Positions 284 through 13,789 of a stretch of 20,000 bases of DNA are shown in pieces. The position numbers and the translations under genes were made by a program. Source of the DNA: Chiloscyllium plagiosum (lineage: Eukaryota); the NCBI RefSeq assembly GCF_004010195.1, contig NC_057753.1, forward strand, positions 9,405,555-9,425,554. Reading direction: 5' to 3'. The first letter of the stretch is position 1; every line of letters starts with the position of its first letter. A model generated the notes under the pieces. The model ran no database searches. It saw only the letters and a program-made list of their open reading frames with translations, and had not been told where the DNA came from.

Positions 284-299
284 TTTGCCAATTGAGATA

Positions 300-833
300 G
301 ACCTGGACCAACTTTTCCCAAGGCTGTCCCCTCCCTGGACTCACTCTCTTTCCTTTCAGGTGCTGCAAGTCAACAATTGAACCACAGAATGAGAAAATAA
401 ACGGAAAAGGGGGTGTGAAATAAAAGGGTGTCATACTCAGATGTTGGACAGAGGAAGGAAGTTGCAGTCTGGAGTGAAGTTCAATCTTCATTCAGAGAGA
501 GGAGCAAGAGCAGCAGCAGCTTCGGAAGCTCATGGTCCACCTTCTGCATTCAGATAATAGGTGAGCTCTGTTTGGCAGGAGGACAATTCTCCTTCCAGTC
601 CTCCAGTGCTCCCTGTTGGTCCATTAAAAGAAGGTCTTGCACCTTTTCTGCCTACAGCAAGGAACATGGCCAATGTTAAGGTTATACCAGTGAACATGCA
701 CCCTGCTTGCTGACACCAAGGAGTCTACACAATATGCTCTGTGGCAATGTTGATATTATTGACAGATTCCAAGTGTCCAAATGCCAGTGAGAAAAAAAGG
801 GTAGAGCCTTTTTTATCCCCACGTGGCTTGACA
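300..833 (-). repeat. Decayed paralogous copy of the promoter/first-exon module at 9241-9733
   Basis: Colinear similarity with 9241-9733 (shared 'cctggaccaac', 'gcagtctggagtgaa', 'tcaatcttcattc', 'cgtggct.gacat'). The splice donor and ETS, CCAAT and NRF1 motifs are mutated here. Confidence 0.8.
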
Positions 834-879
834 TTTTATTGCTTTTGCATTTTGTCTGGCTGCTCAACTTTTTATGTCT

Positions 880-1182
880 TTTCCCCAGTGTAGGAATGAA
901 GTTCAGAACTAGAGGGCATAGGGTGAGAGTGGCAAGATATAAAAGTGGCAACTTTTCCATGTAGAAGGTGGTGCGTGTATCGAATGAGTTGCCAGAGGAA
1001 GTGGTGGAGGCTGGTACAATTACAGAATTTAAAAGGCATCTGGATGGGTATATGAATAGGAAGGGTTTAGTGGGATATGAACCAAGTGCTGGCAATTGGG
1101 ATTAGATTAATTTGGATATCTGTTCGGCTTGGATGGGGAGGATGAAAAGGTCTGTTTCCATGCCGTACGTCTGCAACTCTAA
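880..1182 (+). mobile_element. CR1-clade LINE 3' end fragment
   Basis: 'agaactagagggcatagggtgagag...gaggaagtggtggaggctggtacaattacag...gggtttagtgggatatg...tctgtttccatgccgtac' matches the CR1 3' ends at 8350-8735, 15436-15905 and 17325-17983. Confidence 0.85.
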
Positions 1183-1499
1183 ATAATAGAGTACACTTTC
1201 ACAAATAACAAACTATATCCATGTTAACAAGGATTAGTACACCATGTACTTTACTAACCATCCTCAATAGGTCCTGCCCCTTCGATGACTGAACAACATA
1301 TGCTGGTGCATAATCTCCTTCACACACACTAGGCTGAACAATTGCACTAGTAACTGCAACAATAAACAGCATAAGGATAAAAAGAAAGCGAGGGTAAAAA
1401 TCACAAGCGCCAGTAAAAGCAGATGGAAAGTGAGTGTAAAATGTCACTATGACAGGACAGGCCCCACATTCCTTCCCCTCCGTCCCCCCACAACCTGCC

Positions 1500-1900
1500 T
1501 CACCTTTCACCTCCCGGGCCCAGTACCTTCCAGGTGGCCCCATAGTTGACACAGGGGCCGCCCCACGACCAGTAGAACTCCACCACCCAGGCGGCCGACG
1601 AGTTCCCAAGCAGGCCCTTAACCCCATCCGCCTCCAGAATGCTCACCGGCTCCTGCCTGCTGTACAGCCGGCCGGTGTGGCCGTGACACAGCAGCTGCGC
1701 CAGGAAGGCGGCGGTGCCCAGTGACGGGTGTCTGCCCCGGGCCGCACGGCGCCATCTTCCTAACGGCCGCCCTCCCGCCGCTTCCCCGCTCGAGCGACTT
1801 CTCCTCCCAACCGCCTTCGCCCCCGCGTGACGTCTGCACGGGGGGATGGGCGGGGCCGGGGAGCCTCACCGTCACCAAGCAACAGCCACCTCGCGCTACA
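1500..1900. promoter_or_regulatory. CpG island/promoter around the QSOX-like exon
   Basis: Very GC- and CpG-rich against a CpG-poor background. YY1-type GCCATCTT overlaps the ATG (1751-1758); TGACGTC near 1828-1834; GC box GGGCGGGG near 1848-1855. Confidence 0.75.
1504..1755 (-). pseudogene. QSOX2: Sulfhydryl oxidase (QSOX, most like QSOX2) exon 1, frameshifted, with CxxC destroyed
   Basis: Manual minus-strand translation: ATG at 1755 (ggaagATGgcg) MAPCG / +1 shift / RGRHPSLGTAAFLAQLLCHGHTGRLYSRQEPVSILEADGVKGLLGNSSAAWVVEFYWSWGGPCVNYGATWKVL / +1 shift / AREVK, then G|GTGAGG donor at 1503. This aligns with the recalled QSOX2 start RLY...[33 protein letters not shown]. Confidence 0.85.
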
Positions 1901-2334
1901 ACTGCTCATTCACAAAAACAAACTCTCCTGTCTCGCTCTGCAGCTGCAGGGGGGACACTGCCTGTTTCCAGGAGCCCTGTCCACATTACATTGAGCCGTG
2001 AGCTTTCACAAAGAGATATTCTTTTAAATTGTCATCTCTAAATGGGGAAATTAGCATTTTAAGGGGGCATGGACATTGTAAAGATATTTAAATGAACAAG
2101 ATTATATTTCAAAGGAATGTGGGCACATTCAAAGGTGTATCTTGTTATCTAAAGTGACGCCGTCAAATCGAAATGAAACTTCATTTCAAAGAGATGTTGC
2201 CCTATTTATAAACAGAAATATCCCTTTGAGACAATAGGTGTGAATTCTGTCTGTGTCCCAACGTTGAGTCAGACTGACATTTTTCTTAGAAAAGCTCTGC
2301 ATTTCAATTACATTCTTGAGAAGTTAATTGATAG

Positions 2335-2589: not shown

Positions 2590-3360
2590 TCATAGAGACA
2601 TACAGCACAGAAACAGACTCTTCTGTCCAACTCGTCCATGCCGACTAAACTAGTCACACTTGCCTGCATTTGGCCCATATCCCTCTAAACCTTTCTATTC
2701 ATGCACCTATTCAAATGTCTTTAAATGTTGTAACTGTCCCTGTATCTACCACTTCCTCAGCAAGTTCATTCCACATGCAAACTTCTCTGTCAAAACTTTG
2801 CCCCCTCAGGTTGCTTTTAAAATCTCTCTCCTCTCACCTTAAAGAACTATGCCTCCTAGTTTTGAGCTCCCCTACGCCATGGAAGAGCCGTTTGCTATTC
2901 ACCTTAGCTCCACTCCTCACGATTTTATAAATCTCAATGAGATCACCCCTCAACTTCCTGTGCTCCAGTGAAGAAAGTCCCAGCCTCTCCTTATAACTCA
3001 AACCCTCCAGTCCTGGCAGCATCCTGGTAAATCTTTACCAAACCCTCTTTAACAGTATTCTTCCTATTACAGGCCACCAGAACTGCATTCAGTACTCTGA
3101 AAGTGGCCTCACCAACATTCTGTACAACTTGAACATGATGTCCCAACTCCTATACTCAGTGGTGTGAACAATGAAGGCAATGGTTCTAAATGCCTTCTTA
3201 ACCACCCTGTCTACCAGTGATCCAACTTTCAAAGAACTATGTAGCTGAACGCCCCCACACCCCCCATGTCTCACTGTTTTGCAATATGACCCAAGGCCCT
3301 ACCATTAACAGTACAAGTCCTGCCCTTCCTTGTTTTCGCAAAACACAACCTTCGCTTTTA
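2590..3360 (-). mobile_element. CR1-clade LINE 3' fragment
   Basis: Minus-strand peptides 'SWDIMFKLYRMLVRPLSEY' and 'MLPGLEGLSYKERLGLSSLEHRKLRGDLIEIYKIV' are typical of the CR1 ORF2 C-terminus. The 3' tail is near 2590. Confidence 0.9.
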
Positions 3361-3830
3361 TTCACACCACTCTCTCCTCAGACATACACACACACCCCAA
3401 CACACTCACAGGCTAAGACTCCATCACACTCTCACTTTACCAAACATGCACACACTCTCACATAACTCTACAGAGTGACTTTGTATTGGCAGAATTATTT
3501 GCAGATACATTCAATTTTGCTTAAAAAGCACACAGTCTGCAGGCAGTCAATCCATGTAATATTTCATAAATTCCTACTTTGGGAATAGAACCAGTCTGAT
3601 TCAAGACTGGGATACTGACAGACTCAAATCTCACATCTTTAATGCATTTTCTGAGCTGAATTGTCACTTTTTAAAAAATATAACCTTAAGTCATCTTGAA
3701 AACGTGACTTAAAAGATGTTTTAATATTAATGAACTGAAAACTGCAACCTATTCTAAAAGATGACTATAACCTGGTGTTGTGTGATTTTTAACTTTGTCC
3801 ACCCCAGTCCAACACAGGGACATCCGCATC
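3361..3830 (+). mobile_element. Penelope-like element fragment, internally deleted relative to 10211-10885
   Basis: CA-rich start, then colinear with 10390-10885. It lacks the 156 bp (10662-10817 in the paralog) that contain the hammerhead motif. Confidence 0.55.
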
Positions 3831-4053
3831 ATTTCTAGTGAACATAGCCCACACCTCCCGGTGCTGCTATTAAACTTTACAATGCAGATGAAACGACGCA
3901 GTCTGCAATCCTGAAAGATTTACAATTTCAAACAATACTAGCTACTCATTCATTGCTCCATCTGATACACGACATTGTAAGCTTAGTGCAGGAGGCTTTA
4001 AAACAAAAACTTCGAGTTCAAAGCTTTCAATGAGAGCCTGAGCCCAGATAACC

Positions 4054-4059
4054 TTTATT
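4054..4059 (-). terminator. Candidate polyadenylation signal AATAAA of the zinc-finger gene
   Basis: TTTATT on plus, about 550 nt downstream of the stop codon. Conserved in the paralog at 11129-11134. Confidence 0.55.
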
Positions 4060-4299
4060 GTGAACCAACTTTGTTACAACTTCCAATCCCCTCACCAAAG
4101 AGGCATACAAAAAGTAGCTGGTTTTTAAACAGCTGAAGGTCAAAGTGCACACGCTCCCCCACCACCTCACTTTCTTTACTATTGGTCAGCACTGAGTTGT
4201 TCTGTTGTAAATGGATCCTTGGTACAGCCTTAACCCAGAGGAAGTATTGCCTCACTCAACAATTTCAACCTTTATCTAAGTAAGTTTCTCCCCACTCAT

Positions 4300-4600
4300 T
4301 TGCCGGGGGCGGAGGCAGTATAGAGTCAACCAGACTGCTGTGGGGCTGGAGTCACGTGTGAGCCAGACAGGGTAAAGGATGCAGCTGGGACAACTGAGGG
4401 AATCCTTTGCCACAACTGCCGTTTCCTTCCCTAAAAAGGGCGTGAGTGAATCAGATGGGGTTTTTCACCCCCAAAAATGGTCTTATCGTTAGATTCTGAA
4501 CTCCAGATTTCTGACCGAATTCCAATTCCACCATATGCCATGGCAGGATTCAAACCTAGGCATCGCTGGAACTGGGTCAATATCGGCACTCTACCCTCAC
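4300..4600 (-). mobile_element. Old tRNA-derived SINE in the zinc-finger 3' UTR
   Basis: Minus-strand B-box-like GGTTTGAATCC near 4546-4556, followed by a body '...catctgattcactcacgccctttttagggaaggaaacggc...gactccagccccacagc' resembling a common shark SINE family. Family not confirmed. Confidence 0.6.
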
Positions 4601-4604
4601 TCCT

Positions 4605-5321
4605 TCAATCCCCTTGCGATGGTACATGAACCCGCTGGTGCCTCCGCAGGTTGGAGGAGCGGGTGAAGCCCTTCCTGCACTCAGGGCAGCTGAAGGGCCT
4701 CTCCCCGGTGTGGATCTGCCGGTGAGTCAACAGGTTGGATGCCTGGGTAAAGCCCTTCCCACATTCTGGACAGCTGTAGGGCCTCTGCCCTGTGTGGACC
4801 CGCCGGTGGGTAAGCAGGTGGGAGGCCCGGGTAAAGCCCTTCCCGCAATCGGGGCAGCTGAAGGGCCTCTCCTCTGTATGGACCCGCTGGTGCCTGAGCA
4901 GTATGGAGGAATCGCTGAAGCCCTTCCCGCACTCAGGGCAGCTGAAGGGCCTCTCCCCCATGTGGAGTCGCTGGTGCCTCAGCAGGTTGGAGGAACTGCT
5001 GAAGGCCTTCCTGCACTCGGGGCAGCTGAAGGGCCTCTCCCCCGTGTGGACCCGCCGGTGGGTCAGCAGGTCAGAGGAATGGCTGAAGCCCTTCCCGCAC
5101 TCAGAACAGCTAAAGGGCCTCTCCCCCGTGTGGACTCGTTGGTGGATCTGGAGGGTGGAGGCCTGCGTAAAGCCCTTCCCACACTCAGGGCAGAAGAATG
5201 GCCTCTCCCCGGTGTGGATGCGTCGATGAGTCTCCAAGGCAGATGGGACACAGAAACCTTTCCCGCAGTCGCCACATTTCCACGGTTTCTCCACAGGGCG
5301 GGATTCCTCGAGTTTCTCCAT
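4605..5321 (-). CDS. C2H2 zinc-finger protein, 8 tandem Kruppel-type fingers, 238 aa, no effector domain visible
   Basis: Eight C-x2-C-x12-H-x3-H fingers with TGERPFS-type linkers. ATG at 5321 in strong Kozak context (gccATGg); in-frame TAG upstream at 5361-5363; stop at 4605-4607. Confidence 0.95.
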
Positions 5322-5728
5322 GGCCGAAGCTTCAGCAGCACACAAATGAGTGTAGAGCCTCTACCCACCGTGAATTCCTCTTTCCAGGCTGTATTATTGA
5401 TTCAGGCTCCACACTCACTGCACTGCAACAGTATGGTCTCTCATCCAGTCCCACTGCTGCTGAAAACGTACTGAAATAAGAACCAAAAAGCTTTGCTCCT
5501 TTTCACAGAACCGTGGTAGAAAATCGTGGTCCAAATGGATTCAGTGACTGTCAGACATCGACATCAAAGTGAGGACTGCAGACACTGGAGTATCAGAGTT
5601 GAAAAGTGCGGCACTGGAAAAGCACAGTGGGTCAGGCAGCACCCGAGGAGCAGGACAGTCAATGTTTCAGACATAAGCCCTTCATCTGTTGATTTTGAAA
5701 CTTCTGTCTTCAGATCTCCAAATACTCT
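5322..5728 (-). other. Probable non-coding 5' part of the terminal exon, with splice acceptor
   Basis: TTTTTTTTAAG|AGTATT acceptor (AG at 5728-5727), positionally conserved in the inverted paralog (AG at 13931-13932). A second possible acceptor TTATTTCAG lies at 5472-5471. Decayed finger-like codons are present. Confidence 0.55.
5566..5686 (-). mobile_element. Short Penelope-like terminal fragment with hammerhead relic
   Basis: Reverse complement aligns with 8998-9117. Flanked by direct 'catc' (5562-5565 and 5683-5686). Confidence 0.7.
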
Positions 5729-6652: not shown

Positions 6653-6850
6653 CTTGAGTTTGCAGTGTCTGCTCCCTCCCTGGGTTCACTCCAGATTCCC
6701 CCCCACCCAGAATGAAGAGTTGCTCAGGAGGGAGGAAGTGGGTTTCACTCTGAAACGGACAGGGCCACTTCCGTGTTGTGACGTCACCAGTGCCGCACTG
6801 CGCCTGCTCCGGACGGCGGCCGCCTGGACCGCACTGCCCTTGCGCAGTTT
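6653..6850 (-). promoter_or_regulatory. Compact CpG-rich promoter and non-coding first exon of the zinc-finger gene (proximal)
   Basis: ETS CACTTCCG 6766-6773, palindromic CRE TGACGTCA 6779-6786, NRF1-like ACTGCGCCTGC near 6797-6807, and donor AAG|GTGAGG with GT at 6652-6651. Confidence 0.7.
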
Positions 6851-9121: not shown

Positions 9122-9352
9122 ACATCCCATCACCATTTAAACAATGCCCCTCCTTCCTGTTTTTTTTTTCGCCACAGCAAAGGATATAACTTCACATTGG
9201 AGGTATTGGATTTGCCATGTGTTTGCCAATTGACACACAGTCCTGGACCAACATTTCCCGAGTCTGCTCCTCCCTGGATTCAATCCTTTTCCTTTCAGTT
9301 GCTGTAAGTCAGCAATTGTAACCCACAATGGAGAAAAGAGAGTGCCGTACTC

Positions 9353-9620
9353 ACAGATGGTGGACAGAGGAAAGAATTTGCAGTCTGGAGTGAAACTCAA
9401 TCTTCATTCTGAGAGAGAGAGGTGCATTACAACTTCCGCATTCAGACAATAGGTGATGTTCTGATTGGCAGGATGACTACCGAACATCCGGTCCTCCAGG
9501 GATCCCCAGTGGCTTCTAAAGAAAGTCGCGCCCCATTTTTAGCGGACAACTAGGAGCATGCGCATTTTTTTGGTGACAAACTTTAACAAGCGCCATTCTT
9601 GCTAACACCGAGGAGCCCGT
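9353..9620 (-). promoter_or_regulatory. Candidate distal promoter and first exon (intact copy of the 300-833 module)
   Basis: Donor CT|GTGAGT (GT at 9354-9353), ETS ACTTCCG 9432-9438, NF-Y CTGATTGGC 9461-9469, NRF1-like GCATGCGCA 9556-9564, and locally retained CpGs. Confidence 0.65.
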
Positions 9621-9756
9621 GCAGTATTCTCTGTGGAAATGCTGCTATTACGAACAAATTTTAAGGGTCCAAATGCTAATAGGAGAAAAAAAAAGGGTAG
9701 ACCCACAATTTATTTTCCTCCGTGGCTCGACATAACCACGCATGCTCCTCACTATT

Positions 9757-10889: not shown

Positions 10890-11700
10890 CAATGAACACA
10901 GCCCACACCTCCTGTCTGTAAACCTTACAATGCTGATGACATAATGCAGTACCTGCACTCCTGAAAATTTTCTAATGATACTGGCTACGCATTCACTGCT
11001 GCAACTGATACACAACATTGGAAACTTAGTGTAGGAGGCTGAAAGAAATGAGCAGTTTTAAAACAAAAACCTGTTGCAGCTTAAAGCTTCCAATGAGTGT
11101 CTGAGACTGGTGGTAAGTTCAGGTAACCTTTATTGCAACCCAACTTTACTACAGCTTCAGATCCTCCCAGCAAAAAGGCATAGAAAAAGTAGCTGCTTTT
11201 TAAACAGCACAAGGTCAGAGCATTGTCAGTCCAGGGTAGAAATTCAGAACATGCAATTCTACTTTGAGGAACATTTTTTGCTTTTGTTATTCCACAAAAT
11301 TGAAAGCACCATCCCATTCTCCCGCTCCGTGTTCTCACTCTGCTTGAACTAATTCTCCTGAAGGTGCTGATTCAGGATCTCACAGGGACAGTAAAAGCAA
11401 AAAGCAAAACGGACATCTCTCTGAATTTTGGATAACCCCATCTGACAGTTAATATCTTTCACAACACTAGGGTACTGCTGAGAGTGAGCAGGTCTGATTT
11501 TGGGAAGCAAAAAAAAAGGGTGTGTCAATTCAGGGTGAACCAGCAATGCAGCTTCTTGATGAAGAACCAGACATTAAATTATTAACATCCCCAGGACAAA
11601 AAAAGGGTGGGTGTGGAGGAGGTGAGACATCAAAGCATTAACACCAACACTCAAGAGAAACTAAATATACAGACATGGCAAGCATTGTTGGAAAGCCAGG
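10890..11700 (-). pseudogene. Zinc-finger gene remnant with the entire coding exon missing
   Basis: 10890-11220 aligns with about 3840-4145 (3' flank and AATAAA). 11221-11700 aligns with about 5753-6207 (upstream intron). About 1.6 kb, including the CDS, is absent between them. Confidence 0.85.
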
Positions 11701-13049: not shown

Positions 13050-13520
13050 AAATAAACCCACCTATCAGGTGGCTGGGGGCGGGCAAAACTATCGCCCCGC
13101 CCCCGTTTTTTTTTCGAATTCTTGGCAGACTCCTCCAACCACGCCCCTTCAGCTGGTGATGACGCCCCCGTCATTCTCACTCCCAAACCCGTGACCTGGC
13201 GCATGTGCAATGTAAGTCCTGCAGCGCGACACAGGCAGTGATACTGAGTGCGGTGGAGGAACGGAGACGGCGGCTGAAGGAACAAGAACAGGACCCGCTG
13301 GAAAAGCTGAGCGGGTCCGGCAGCGCGTGTCGAGAGACTGGGGAGTTTACAAACTCCTAGGGGGAGGCCTGAGGTCGCGAATAAAAGCCCCACCGGGCTA
13401 GTGTTTATCGGGTTGCCCAGGTAATCTGCCGCCATGTTTGTGAGGGGAAGGCGCGTGTTGTCTTGGGTCGGGCGGCCATCTTGGTGAAGGCACCATCCGC
13501 GGTCATTTCCGGGAGAGAAC
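13050..13520. promoter_or_regulatory. CpG island promoter, possibly bidirectional
   Basis: GC boxes (GGGGCGGG, CCCCGCCCC), TGACG, NRF1-like GCGCATGTGCA near 13199-13209, YY1-type GCCATGTT and GCCATCTT, ETS-like TTTCCGG, and a candidate plus-strand donor CAG|GTAATC near 13421. Confidence 0.75.
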
Positions 13521-13789
13521 TCCAACCTCGTGACAGCCTTTGTGTCAACTAGAATTTCCTCATTTCACTTTGAGAGACCTGGCGCTGAGCTTGGTATATC
13601 TGCCCTTAACACAGGAAAAGGGAGTGAGAGAGAGAAAAACAGGAAGGCGGGCTGTGAATGTGATAATTTGTGACACTGGAACAGAAAGTGGTGATCACAG
13701 TGACCTGGAGAGCATTGACGTGTTGATGTTGTTTTCAGTTTGTTGACTGGAGGAAAAAAAGAACACCAGGAGTGGAAGAAAGACATGAA

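Follow-up and report, generated by a model that had tools for sequence, protein, structure and literature searches.

The window, i.e., the whole stretch of 20,000 nucleotides from Chiloscyllium plagiosum that was analyzed here, contains a C2H2 zinc-finger (ZNF) cluster with a CpG-dense fragment of a QSOX-like gene at its left-hand side. A first-pass annotation, made from the sequence, proposed that this fragment has replaced a dead ZNF promoter and serves as promoter and non-coding first exon of the next gene to the left. The locus thus raises the question whether a promoter was captured, and whether it is the copy in this window that is at work. The coordinates of the features are given in Table 1.

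Table 1. Features of the window. Coordinates refer to the first nucleotide of the window as position 1; o/e, observed/expected CpG.
Feature	Position	Strand	Characteristics
Decayed module A	284..834	-	Paralog of 9222-9733 with few CpGs; former donor deleted
Candidate internal exon in module A	345..649	-	Acceptor AG 649-648, donor-like GTGAGT at 344
High-copy interspersed repeat piece between QSOX exon and module	870..1180		LINE-like (presumed label)
Intron start, inside the multi-copy unit	1374..1503	-	X1 depth 4570 versus 4.8 at 1302-1373
CpG island	1490..1900		GC 0.693, 37 CpG in 411 bp, o/e 0.78
Splice donor GTGAGG	1498..1503	-	Used by family transcripts; 22 NCBI models diverge here
QSOX2-derived exon 1, native ATG (1755) to splice donor	1504..1755	-	CxxC lost, two +1 shifts
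45-codon upstream ORF from native ATG	1618..1755	-	Strong context; stop 114 nt before junction
Internal alternative donor CCG/GTGAGC	1641..1646	-	Model P0018 breaks off there (1647/1646)
QSOX2 promoter and 5' leader, putatively captured	1756..1990	-	Motif scan, depth bins
AT-rich segment upstream of island, partly multi-copy	1990..2237		X1 depth 56 (2022-2093), about 900-1100 (2094-2237)
Terminal exon of intact 8-finger C2H2 gene	4605..5726	-	238 aa from ATG 5321
Module B, comparison copy	9222..9733	-	CpG-richer; intact donor at 9355/9354

The Zinc-Finger Cluster and Its Decayed Module

The C2H2 cluster consists of two tandem units that are 73-86% identical. In unit 1, the minus strand encodes an intact 8-finger gene, whereas unit 2 misses the whole coding exon; this exon was lost at 11220-11221, where the equivalent of 5753 abuts the equivalent of 4145. 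Bamboo and epaulette shark proteins were the closest relatives in protein searches. An Rfam search returned no matches, and a metagenome scan gave a single weak match of 28 residues (L001). The intact gene has a CpG-rich first-exon candidate on the minus strand at about 6653-6850, without blastn similarity to the module at 284-834. This region, which carries a full CRE palindrome at 6779-6786, likely serves the intact gene as promoter and first exon; it shares the identical donor word AAG/GTGAGG with the QSOX copy but is otherwise unrelated to it. Elsewhere in the window, a second CpG island (13050-13600; GC 0.57, o/e 0.80) contains two minus-strand YY1-like words, has blastn matches of at most 27 nt within the window and encodes a 197-aa frame without Pfam match. 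This island may represent a further promoter, either native or captured. The inverted pair 17701-17957/18300-18556 (257 nt, 99% complementary, 342 nt apart) may represent a very recent inverted duplication or a small element.

Modules A and B share 78% identity (391 of 498 aligned positions). Module A retains only one of the 15 CpGs of module B, eight having changed to TG or CA (rough binomial p 1.6e-5). The GTGAGT donor of module B is missing through a 2-nt deletion near 440, as are its motifs that we take, by consensus, to be NRF1-like and ETS-like. The comparison with module B thus confirms that the module has lost its donor and putative factor motifs, as stated in the first-pass annotation. 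Its role as native first exon of the cluster is a presumption, given that the intact ZNF gene has an unrelated first-exon candidate. Module B carries a polypyrimidine tract and an AG at its 5' end. Two features are confined to module A and had been missed by the first-pass annotation: a donor-like AGA/GTGAGT (345/344) and an AG (649-648), the latter coinciding with the entry point of the sister-locus model P0012. The decayed module may have become an internal exon. The QSOX copy is located 670 bp upstream of it and in the same orientation, in agreement with the arrangement originally described.

A QSOX2-Derived Exon Without Coding Capacity

The minus-strand frame 1503-1865 matched human QSOX1 in the PDB (E 3.5e-11), and the intact genes closest to it are shark QSOX2 genes (72-82% aa identity). 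The CxxC motif of Trx1 is absent (WCGHC reads WGGPC), YAP has become YGA, and a +1 shift is found immediately 5' of the donor. The native ATG at 1755 is out of frame and opens 45 codons that are followed by a stop; neither the signal peptide nor the Trx domain is in the frame of this ATG. The exon has thus indeed lost its coding capacity, although calling it non-coding needs a restriction, since an upstream ORF of 45 codons in strong context is retained. The sister copies P0009, P0021, and P0022 keep the native frame up to the shift at the donor.

The expected donor AAG/GTGAGG is present at 1504/1503, and contigs of two runs, X7 and X17, have loose ends at 1503. With an o/e of 0.78 against 0.34 for the whole window, the fragment is also as CpG-dense as had been noted. 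CpG islands are commonly defined by a GC content > 0.55 and an o/e > 0.6 over at least 200 bp; six consecutive 200-bp windows (1551-2000) reach these values and the island is about 400-450 bp long. On the minus strand of 1756-1990 we located, by consensus, words that are presumably YY1-like (1758), GC-box (1772 and 1848), and CRE-like (1834). RNA depth drops steeply beyond about 1800. We infer that this upstream part descends from the QSOX2 promoter. The adjacent AT-rich stretch (1990-2240) contains three of the nine TTCAAAG words of the window, which we take to be TCF/LEF-like.

The persistence of CpGs had been read as a sign of either lack of methylation or recent origin. The underlying methylation logic, CpG decay, applies to sharks (PMC5437953), and the epaulette shark's rate of mutation is 7e-10 per base per generation (PMC10587355). 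A recent origin fits well, as the copy is near-identical to members of a high-copy family. The argument for function is weak: with this slow mutation rate and with 68 of 68 amino acids identical to a C. plagiosum sister model, the retention of CpGs is no proof of function.

A Multi-Copy Family in Hemiscylliid Sharks

In total, 23 short NCBI models were obtained by two protein searches and two cluster look-ups; the species represented are C. plagiosum, C. punctatum, and H. ocellatum. The lesion block WGGPC/GATWKVL is common to 22 of them, with P0018 stopping earlier, at the internal donor 1647/1646. All 22 (86-192 aa) end soon after the donor and lack the downstream Trx2 and Erv domains. The family models lie on seven contigs, separate from the contigs with intact QSOX2. 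The short models XP_043538291.1, XP_072411752.1, and XP_060678593.1, annotated as sulfhydryl oxidase-like, are sister copies. The NCBI labels ‘sulfhydryl oxidase 1-like’ and ‘2-like’ in Chiloscyllium and Hemiscyllium therefore hide QSOX2 exon-1 chimeras without CxxC. As a separate annotation matter, QSOX2 and LHX3 were merged by NCBI in several sharks (names of P0006 and P0007), and the fused QSOX2-LHX3 model P0004 is either a read-through or an annotation artefact.

A tree over 68 columns splits ten copy rows from five QSOX2 rows at 100/99, with little resolution within the copies. A Leu kept in the copies is lost in three hemiscylliid QSOX2 genes and kept in Stegostoma and Carcharodon; judged from this single indel, the capture would predate the split of Chiloscyllium and Hemiscyllium. 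The lesions were found in none of 148 further representatives (annotated proteins), which together with the retained Leu fits an origin on the hemiscylliid stem.

Four of 24 sequencing runs (X1, X7, X17, and X21) were mapped to 150-2300 at 90% likeness. Many of the other runs contain about 0.64 of the query words, which equals the share of exon plus promoter in the query; no weight was given to this figure. X1 is of DNA type, X7 is of unrecorded type, X17 was guessed to be RNA, and X21 consists of raw single-cell RNA reads, about 2% of which were read. All runs read T at 1756, and the matching X1 contig shows a 69-nt gap in module A (691-759); given these differences, the runs do not stem from the individual of the window. 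The gap itself is either an indel polymorphism or a species difference. In X1, single contigs within the element reach depths of 502, 628, and 1740 compared with 3-10 for locus-specific contigs, which roughly suggests 50-350 copies, i.e., an order of 10^2, contig depth being a poor measure of copy number. The high depth extends from near 1374 to at least 2237 with a dip at 2022-2093, and 1302-1373 is single-copy in X1 at 90% likeness. The unit thus includes the start of the intron and upstream DNA in addition to the exon, which rules out a retrocopy. Exon, donor, intron start, and upstream DNA together, with intact QSOX2 on other contigs, correspond to the acquisition of a promoter by a DNA-level copy of a 5' end.

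Splice Partners in Gene Models

The models are automatic predictions known as proteins only; the tails of all 22 were counted. Two of them, P0013 (C. plagiosum) and P0025 (C. punctatum), join the acceptor of a ZNF terminal exon, their tails aligning to 5728 from the first residue (scores of 111 and 109, against maxima of 75 and 60 after shuffling). This is the type of acceptor found in the terminal exon of the intact gene, which itself lies upstream of the QSOX copy and can therefore not be the partner of the copy in this window. Two others join module A, P0012 from 649 and P0015 near 619, with scores of 100 and 73, where shuffles reach at most 68 and 60, versus 33 and 35 against module B. Since module A is by far the better match for both, an A-type module was probably co-inherited with the QSOX exon. 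Thus, 4 of the 22 predicted models enter exons of ZNF units. The LINE exon is joined in five (P0003, P0019, P0022, P0024, and P0028). Among the remaining 13 tails, eight are too short and five do not score clearly above shuffles, P0011 (83 versus a shuffled maximum of 80) being counted among the latter. The tails RYLDT, RYLK, and RYLN are compatible with the 5' end of the module or the start of the ZNF exon.

No zinc-finger domain was present in the five models scanned, including P0013 and P0025, and the annotated CDS of these two is the QSOX remnant. A fused QSOX-ZNF protein was found in none of seven longer matches in the QSOX frame, and neither of two alternative-frame candidates scored; both are weak negatives. 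The modelled leader of QSOX and ZNF exons adds three upstream ATGs to the five in the native ZNF exon, the first of which has a strong context and a stop 114 nt before the junction. A stop more than 50-55 nt upstream of a junction predicts decay. The upstream ORF is thus predicted to cause poor downstream translation and decay; this would argue against efficient ZNF translation, although five upstream ATGs are present in the native exon anyway.

Transcription of the Family

The exon bins (1518-1733) have a depth of 2867-4411 in X7 and 379-690 in X17. In X21, their depth is 17-28 for first mates on the plus strand against 3-5 on the minus strand, an excess of about 4-10 fold that fits RNA from the minus strand. 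At least two contigs in X7 and at least two in X17 depart from the window precisely at 1503. Their letters past this position best match the repeat piece 3073-3098 (score 16), which has the opposite strand in the window, and they translate as the start of the tail of P0003, P0024, and P0028. The junction in the reads thus leads into an exon that we label as LINE-derived, and neither into QSOX exon 2 nor into module A. Splice junctions from 1504/1503, which the first-pass annotation had named as a check, exist in family RNA and bypass QSOX exon 2, their partner being this LINE-derived exon.

A contig of X7 with a depth of 25 and six differences in 1520-1600 probably represents the mRNA of the parent QSOX2. 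If so, family RNA exceeds the parent mRNA, very roughly, by one to two orders of magnitude, contig depth being a poor measure of expression. A sub-family with alleles at 1511 and 1656 that are apparently of QSOX2 type accounts for about 8-12% of the depth in X1, 37-39% in X7, and about half of the reads in X21. This difference in share between X1 and X7/X21 implies that copies differ in expression. The family as a whole is homologous to QSOX2, shares its lesions among many copies, and is transcribed and spliced.

Origin of the Family

We consider promoter capture the probable explanation for the QSOX2-derived family. In the lineage ancestral to both epaulette and bamboo sharks, a DNA-level copy of the 5' part of QSOX2, from the promoter through exon 1 to the start of intron 1, would have been inserted into a unit of the zinc-finger cluster, upstream of an A-type module. 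CxxC and frame would have been lost once, followed by repeated duplication of the copy together with segments of the cluster. In at least some copies, the CpG-island promoter and the donor would be functional and act as an exon trap for downstream acceptors. The commonest partner would be the LINE-derived exon, probably giving a non-coding RNA, while some models would include the decayed module as internal exon and others a ZNF terminal exon. The window carries one member of this family. We infer the capture beside an A-type module and the spread by segmental duplication, which is favored by downstream exons shared across genera, by the clustering of the models on few contigs, and by the absence of transposon termini.

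Two other origins have to be weighed. One could suspect that we are dealing with the first exon of a real QSOX gene, in which assembly errors in GC-rich DNA mimic lesions, the more so as both shifts fall within G runs and the substitutions are clustered. Yet identical lesions recur in read contigs free of errors and in the 22 models, which stem from three species, and intact QSOX2 is located elsewhere; assembly error is thereby refuted for practical purposes. The fragment could also be cargo of a non-autonomous Helitron-like transposon, inserted beside the old module. Its anatomy of a promoter, a short coding piece, and a donor is that of HelibatN3 (PMC4778049), its copy number is high, it is a near-consensus copy next to a module without close relatives at 582-725, and the block 835-2890 is absent from unit 2. 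However, no end with CTRR plus hairpin, TIR, or TSD exceeded background at the presumed boundaries. The best Helitron 3' end near the left boundary had -3.9 kcal/mol (10th percentile of 152 sites) and lay outside the multi-copy part; for this terminus test, the right boundary of the unit is uncertain. The boundary zones have two direct and one inverted 7-mer in common, compared with 2.2 expected, and the best inverted pairs measure 12-17 nt. The end of the neighboring repeat is also missing in unit 2. This truncated repeat resembles a deletion and favors, as far as the sequence tells, a deletion from unit 2 over an insertion of the block into unit 1. Furthermore, sister loci share the A-type module and two genera use the same LINE exon 2, pointing to a larger co-inherited segment. 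A transposon origin is therefore quite improbable, and we retain promoter capture followed by segmental duplication.

Possible Activity of the Copy in the Window

Applied to the family, the proposal of a promoter and first exon yielding a ZNF chimera finds support in transcription, in splicing from the donor, and in P0013 and P0025. For the copy in the window, promoter activity is putative: the alleles read at 1399/1401 and 1857 point to other copies. There is about an even chance that it is a silent or near-silent passenger, CpG-rich through recent duplication from an active master copy. At 1401, the allele differs from that of the window in each of the four X21 reads and in every X7 contig; the contigs of X7 and X17 farther upstream have one base more than the window at 1857. 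The locus-specific bin 1302-1373 has a depth of 0 in X21, X7, and X17, as have the module bins 510-725 in X21 and X7. The identity of the exon over 68 of 68 amino acids to the C. plagiosum model and the slow decay at the above rate (PMC10587355) point in the same direction. On the other hand, contigs of X17 show no differences from the window at 1512-1644 and 1668-1755, and X17 has a depth of 3-5 over 510-725 (of which 582-725 is single-copy in X1), from either RNA or DNA carry-over. Moreover, the reads examined comprise about 2% of X21 and come from other individuals than that of the window.

The opposite reading, in which the copy has taken over from the dead module and provides an intact ZNF gene to the left with promoter and first exon, so that a zinc-finger protein results, is unlikely. 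Orientation and spacing fit, module A has lost its CpGs and donor and gained an acceptor/donor pair, sister loci show the predicted types of junction, and the repeat structure of the window places the module between the 3' flank of one ZNF unit and the next unit. However, neither a joint from 1504 to 648 nor any other joint from 1504 was among the best 15 of 28 joints listed, and the junction in the reads leads to a LINE exon. The QSOX upstream ORF predicts poor ZNF translation and decay, the CDS of P0013 and P0025 is a QSOX remnant without zinc-finger domain, and the absence of a fused protein in either frame searched adds weak evidence. Finally, unit 2 has lost its coding exon, so the neighboring gene need not be intact.

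Known Parallels and Significance

The family adds a new example to a known process that is represented by LRRC37, NPEPPSP1-TBC1D3, and HelibatN3. No description of it was found in the titles and abstract openings listed by the literature searches. The features of DNA-level copying and chimeric splicing that mark LRRC37 and NPEPPSP1-TBC1D3 are found at the family level, while the test for Helitron termini was negative. The Cl3 and Cl8 promoters of LRRC37 were gained by segmental duplication, RACE demonstrating transcripts of the recipient along with promoter activity (PMC3371713). As in LRRC37, a promoter copy of less than 1 kb, taken from an unrelated gene, enters an expanding tandem family and supplies 5' exons (PMC3371713); unlike in LRRC37, the shark copy includes a decayed coding exon, seemingly exists in about 10^2 copies, and has a putative ZNF output. 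NPEPPSP1-TBC1D3 arose in one 110-kb event that drives one paralog, with a long upstream ORF, and its fusion RNA has two separate ORFs (PMC12871316). There too, an enzyme gene was partially duplicated at its 5' end, and the duplicate lies with its promoter beside a gene cluster (PMC12871316), but the shark unit takes exon 1 only, is multi-copy, and has variable splice partners. HelibatN3 of Myotis bats is an amplified element in which a Helitron captured the NUBPL promoter with a few codons and a donor (PMC4778049). It shares with the shark family the amplified promoter and donor acting as an exon trap, by which non-coding sequence is often turned into exons (PMC4778049); Helitron termini were not found in the shark unit, and the shark copies seem tied to segments of the zinc-finger cluster.

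More than 20 ‘sulfhydryl oxidase-like’ models in hemiscylliid sharks are non-enzymes, and short reads over QSOX2 exon 1 are confounded by copies of the family. Provided that the family reading is correct, capture of a housekeeping promoter and its co-amplification is a route by which an expanding ZNF cluster gains a promoter, a kind of event with precedents in duplications of primates and in Helitrons of bats. In a bolder version, which we regard as possible but doubtful, the QSOX2 promoter, captured once, would be the working promoter of a hemiscylliid C2H2 subfamily, with the older module displaced to an internal UTR exon, in dozens to hundreds of copies that together yield more RNA than QSOX2 itself. 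If this is true, the QSOX-derived upstream ORF would tune zinc-finger output.
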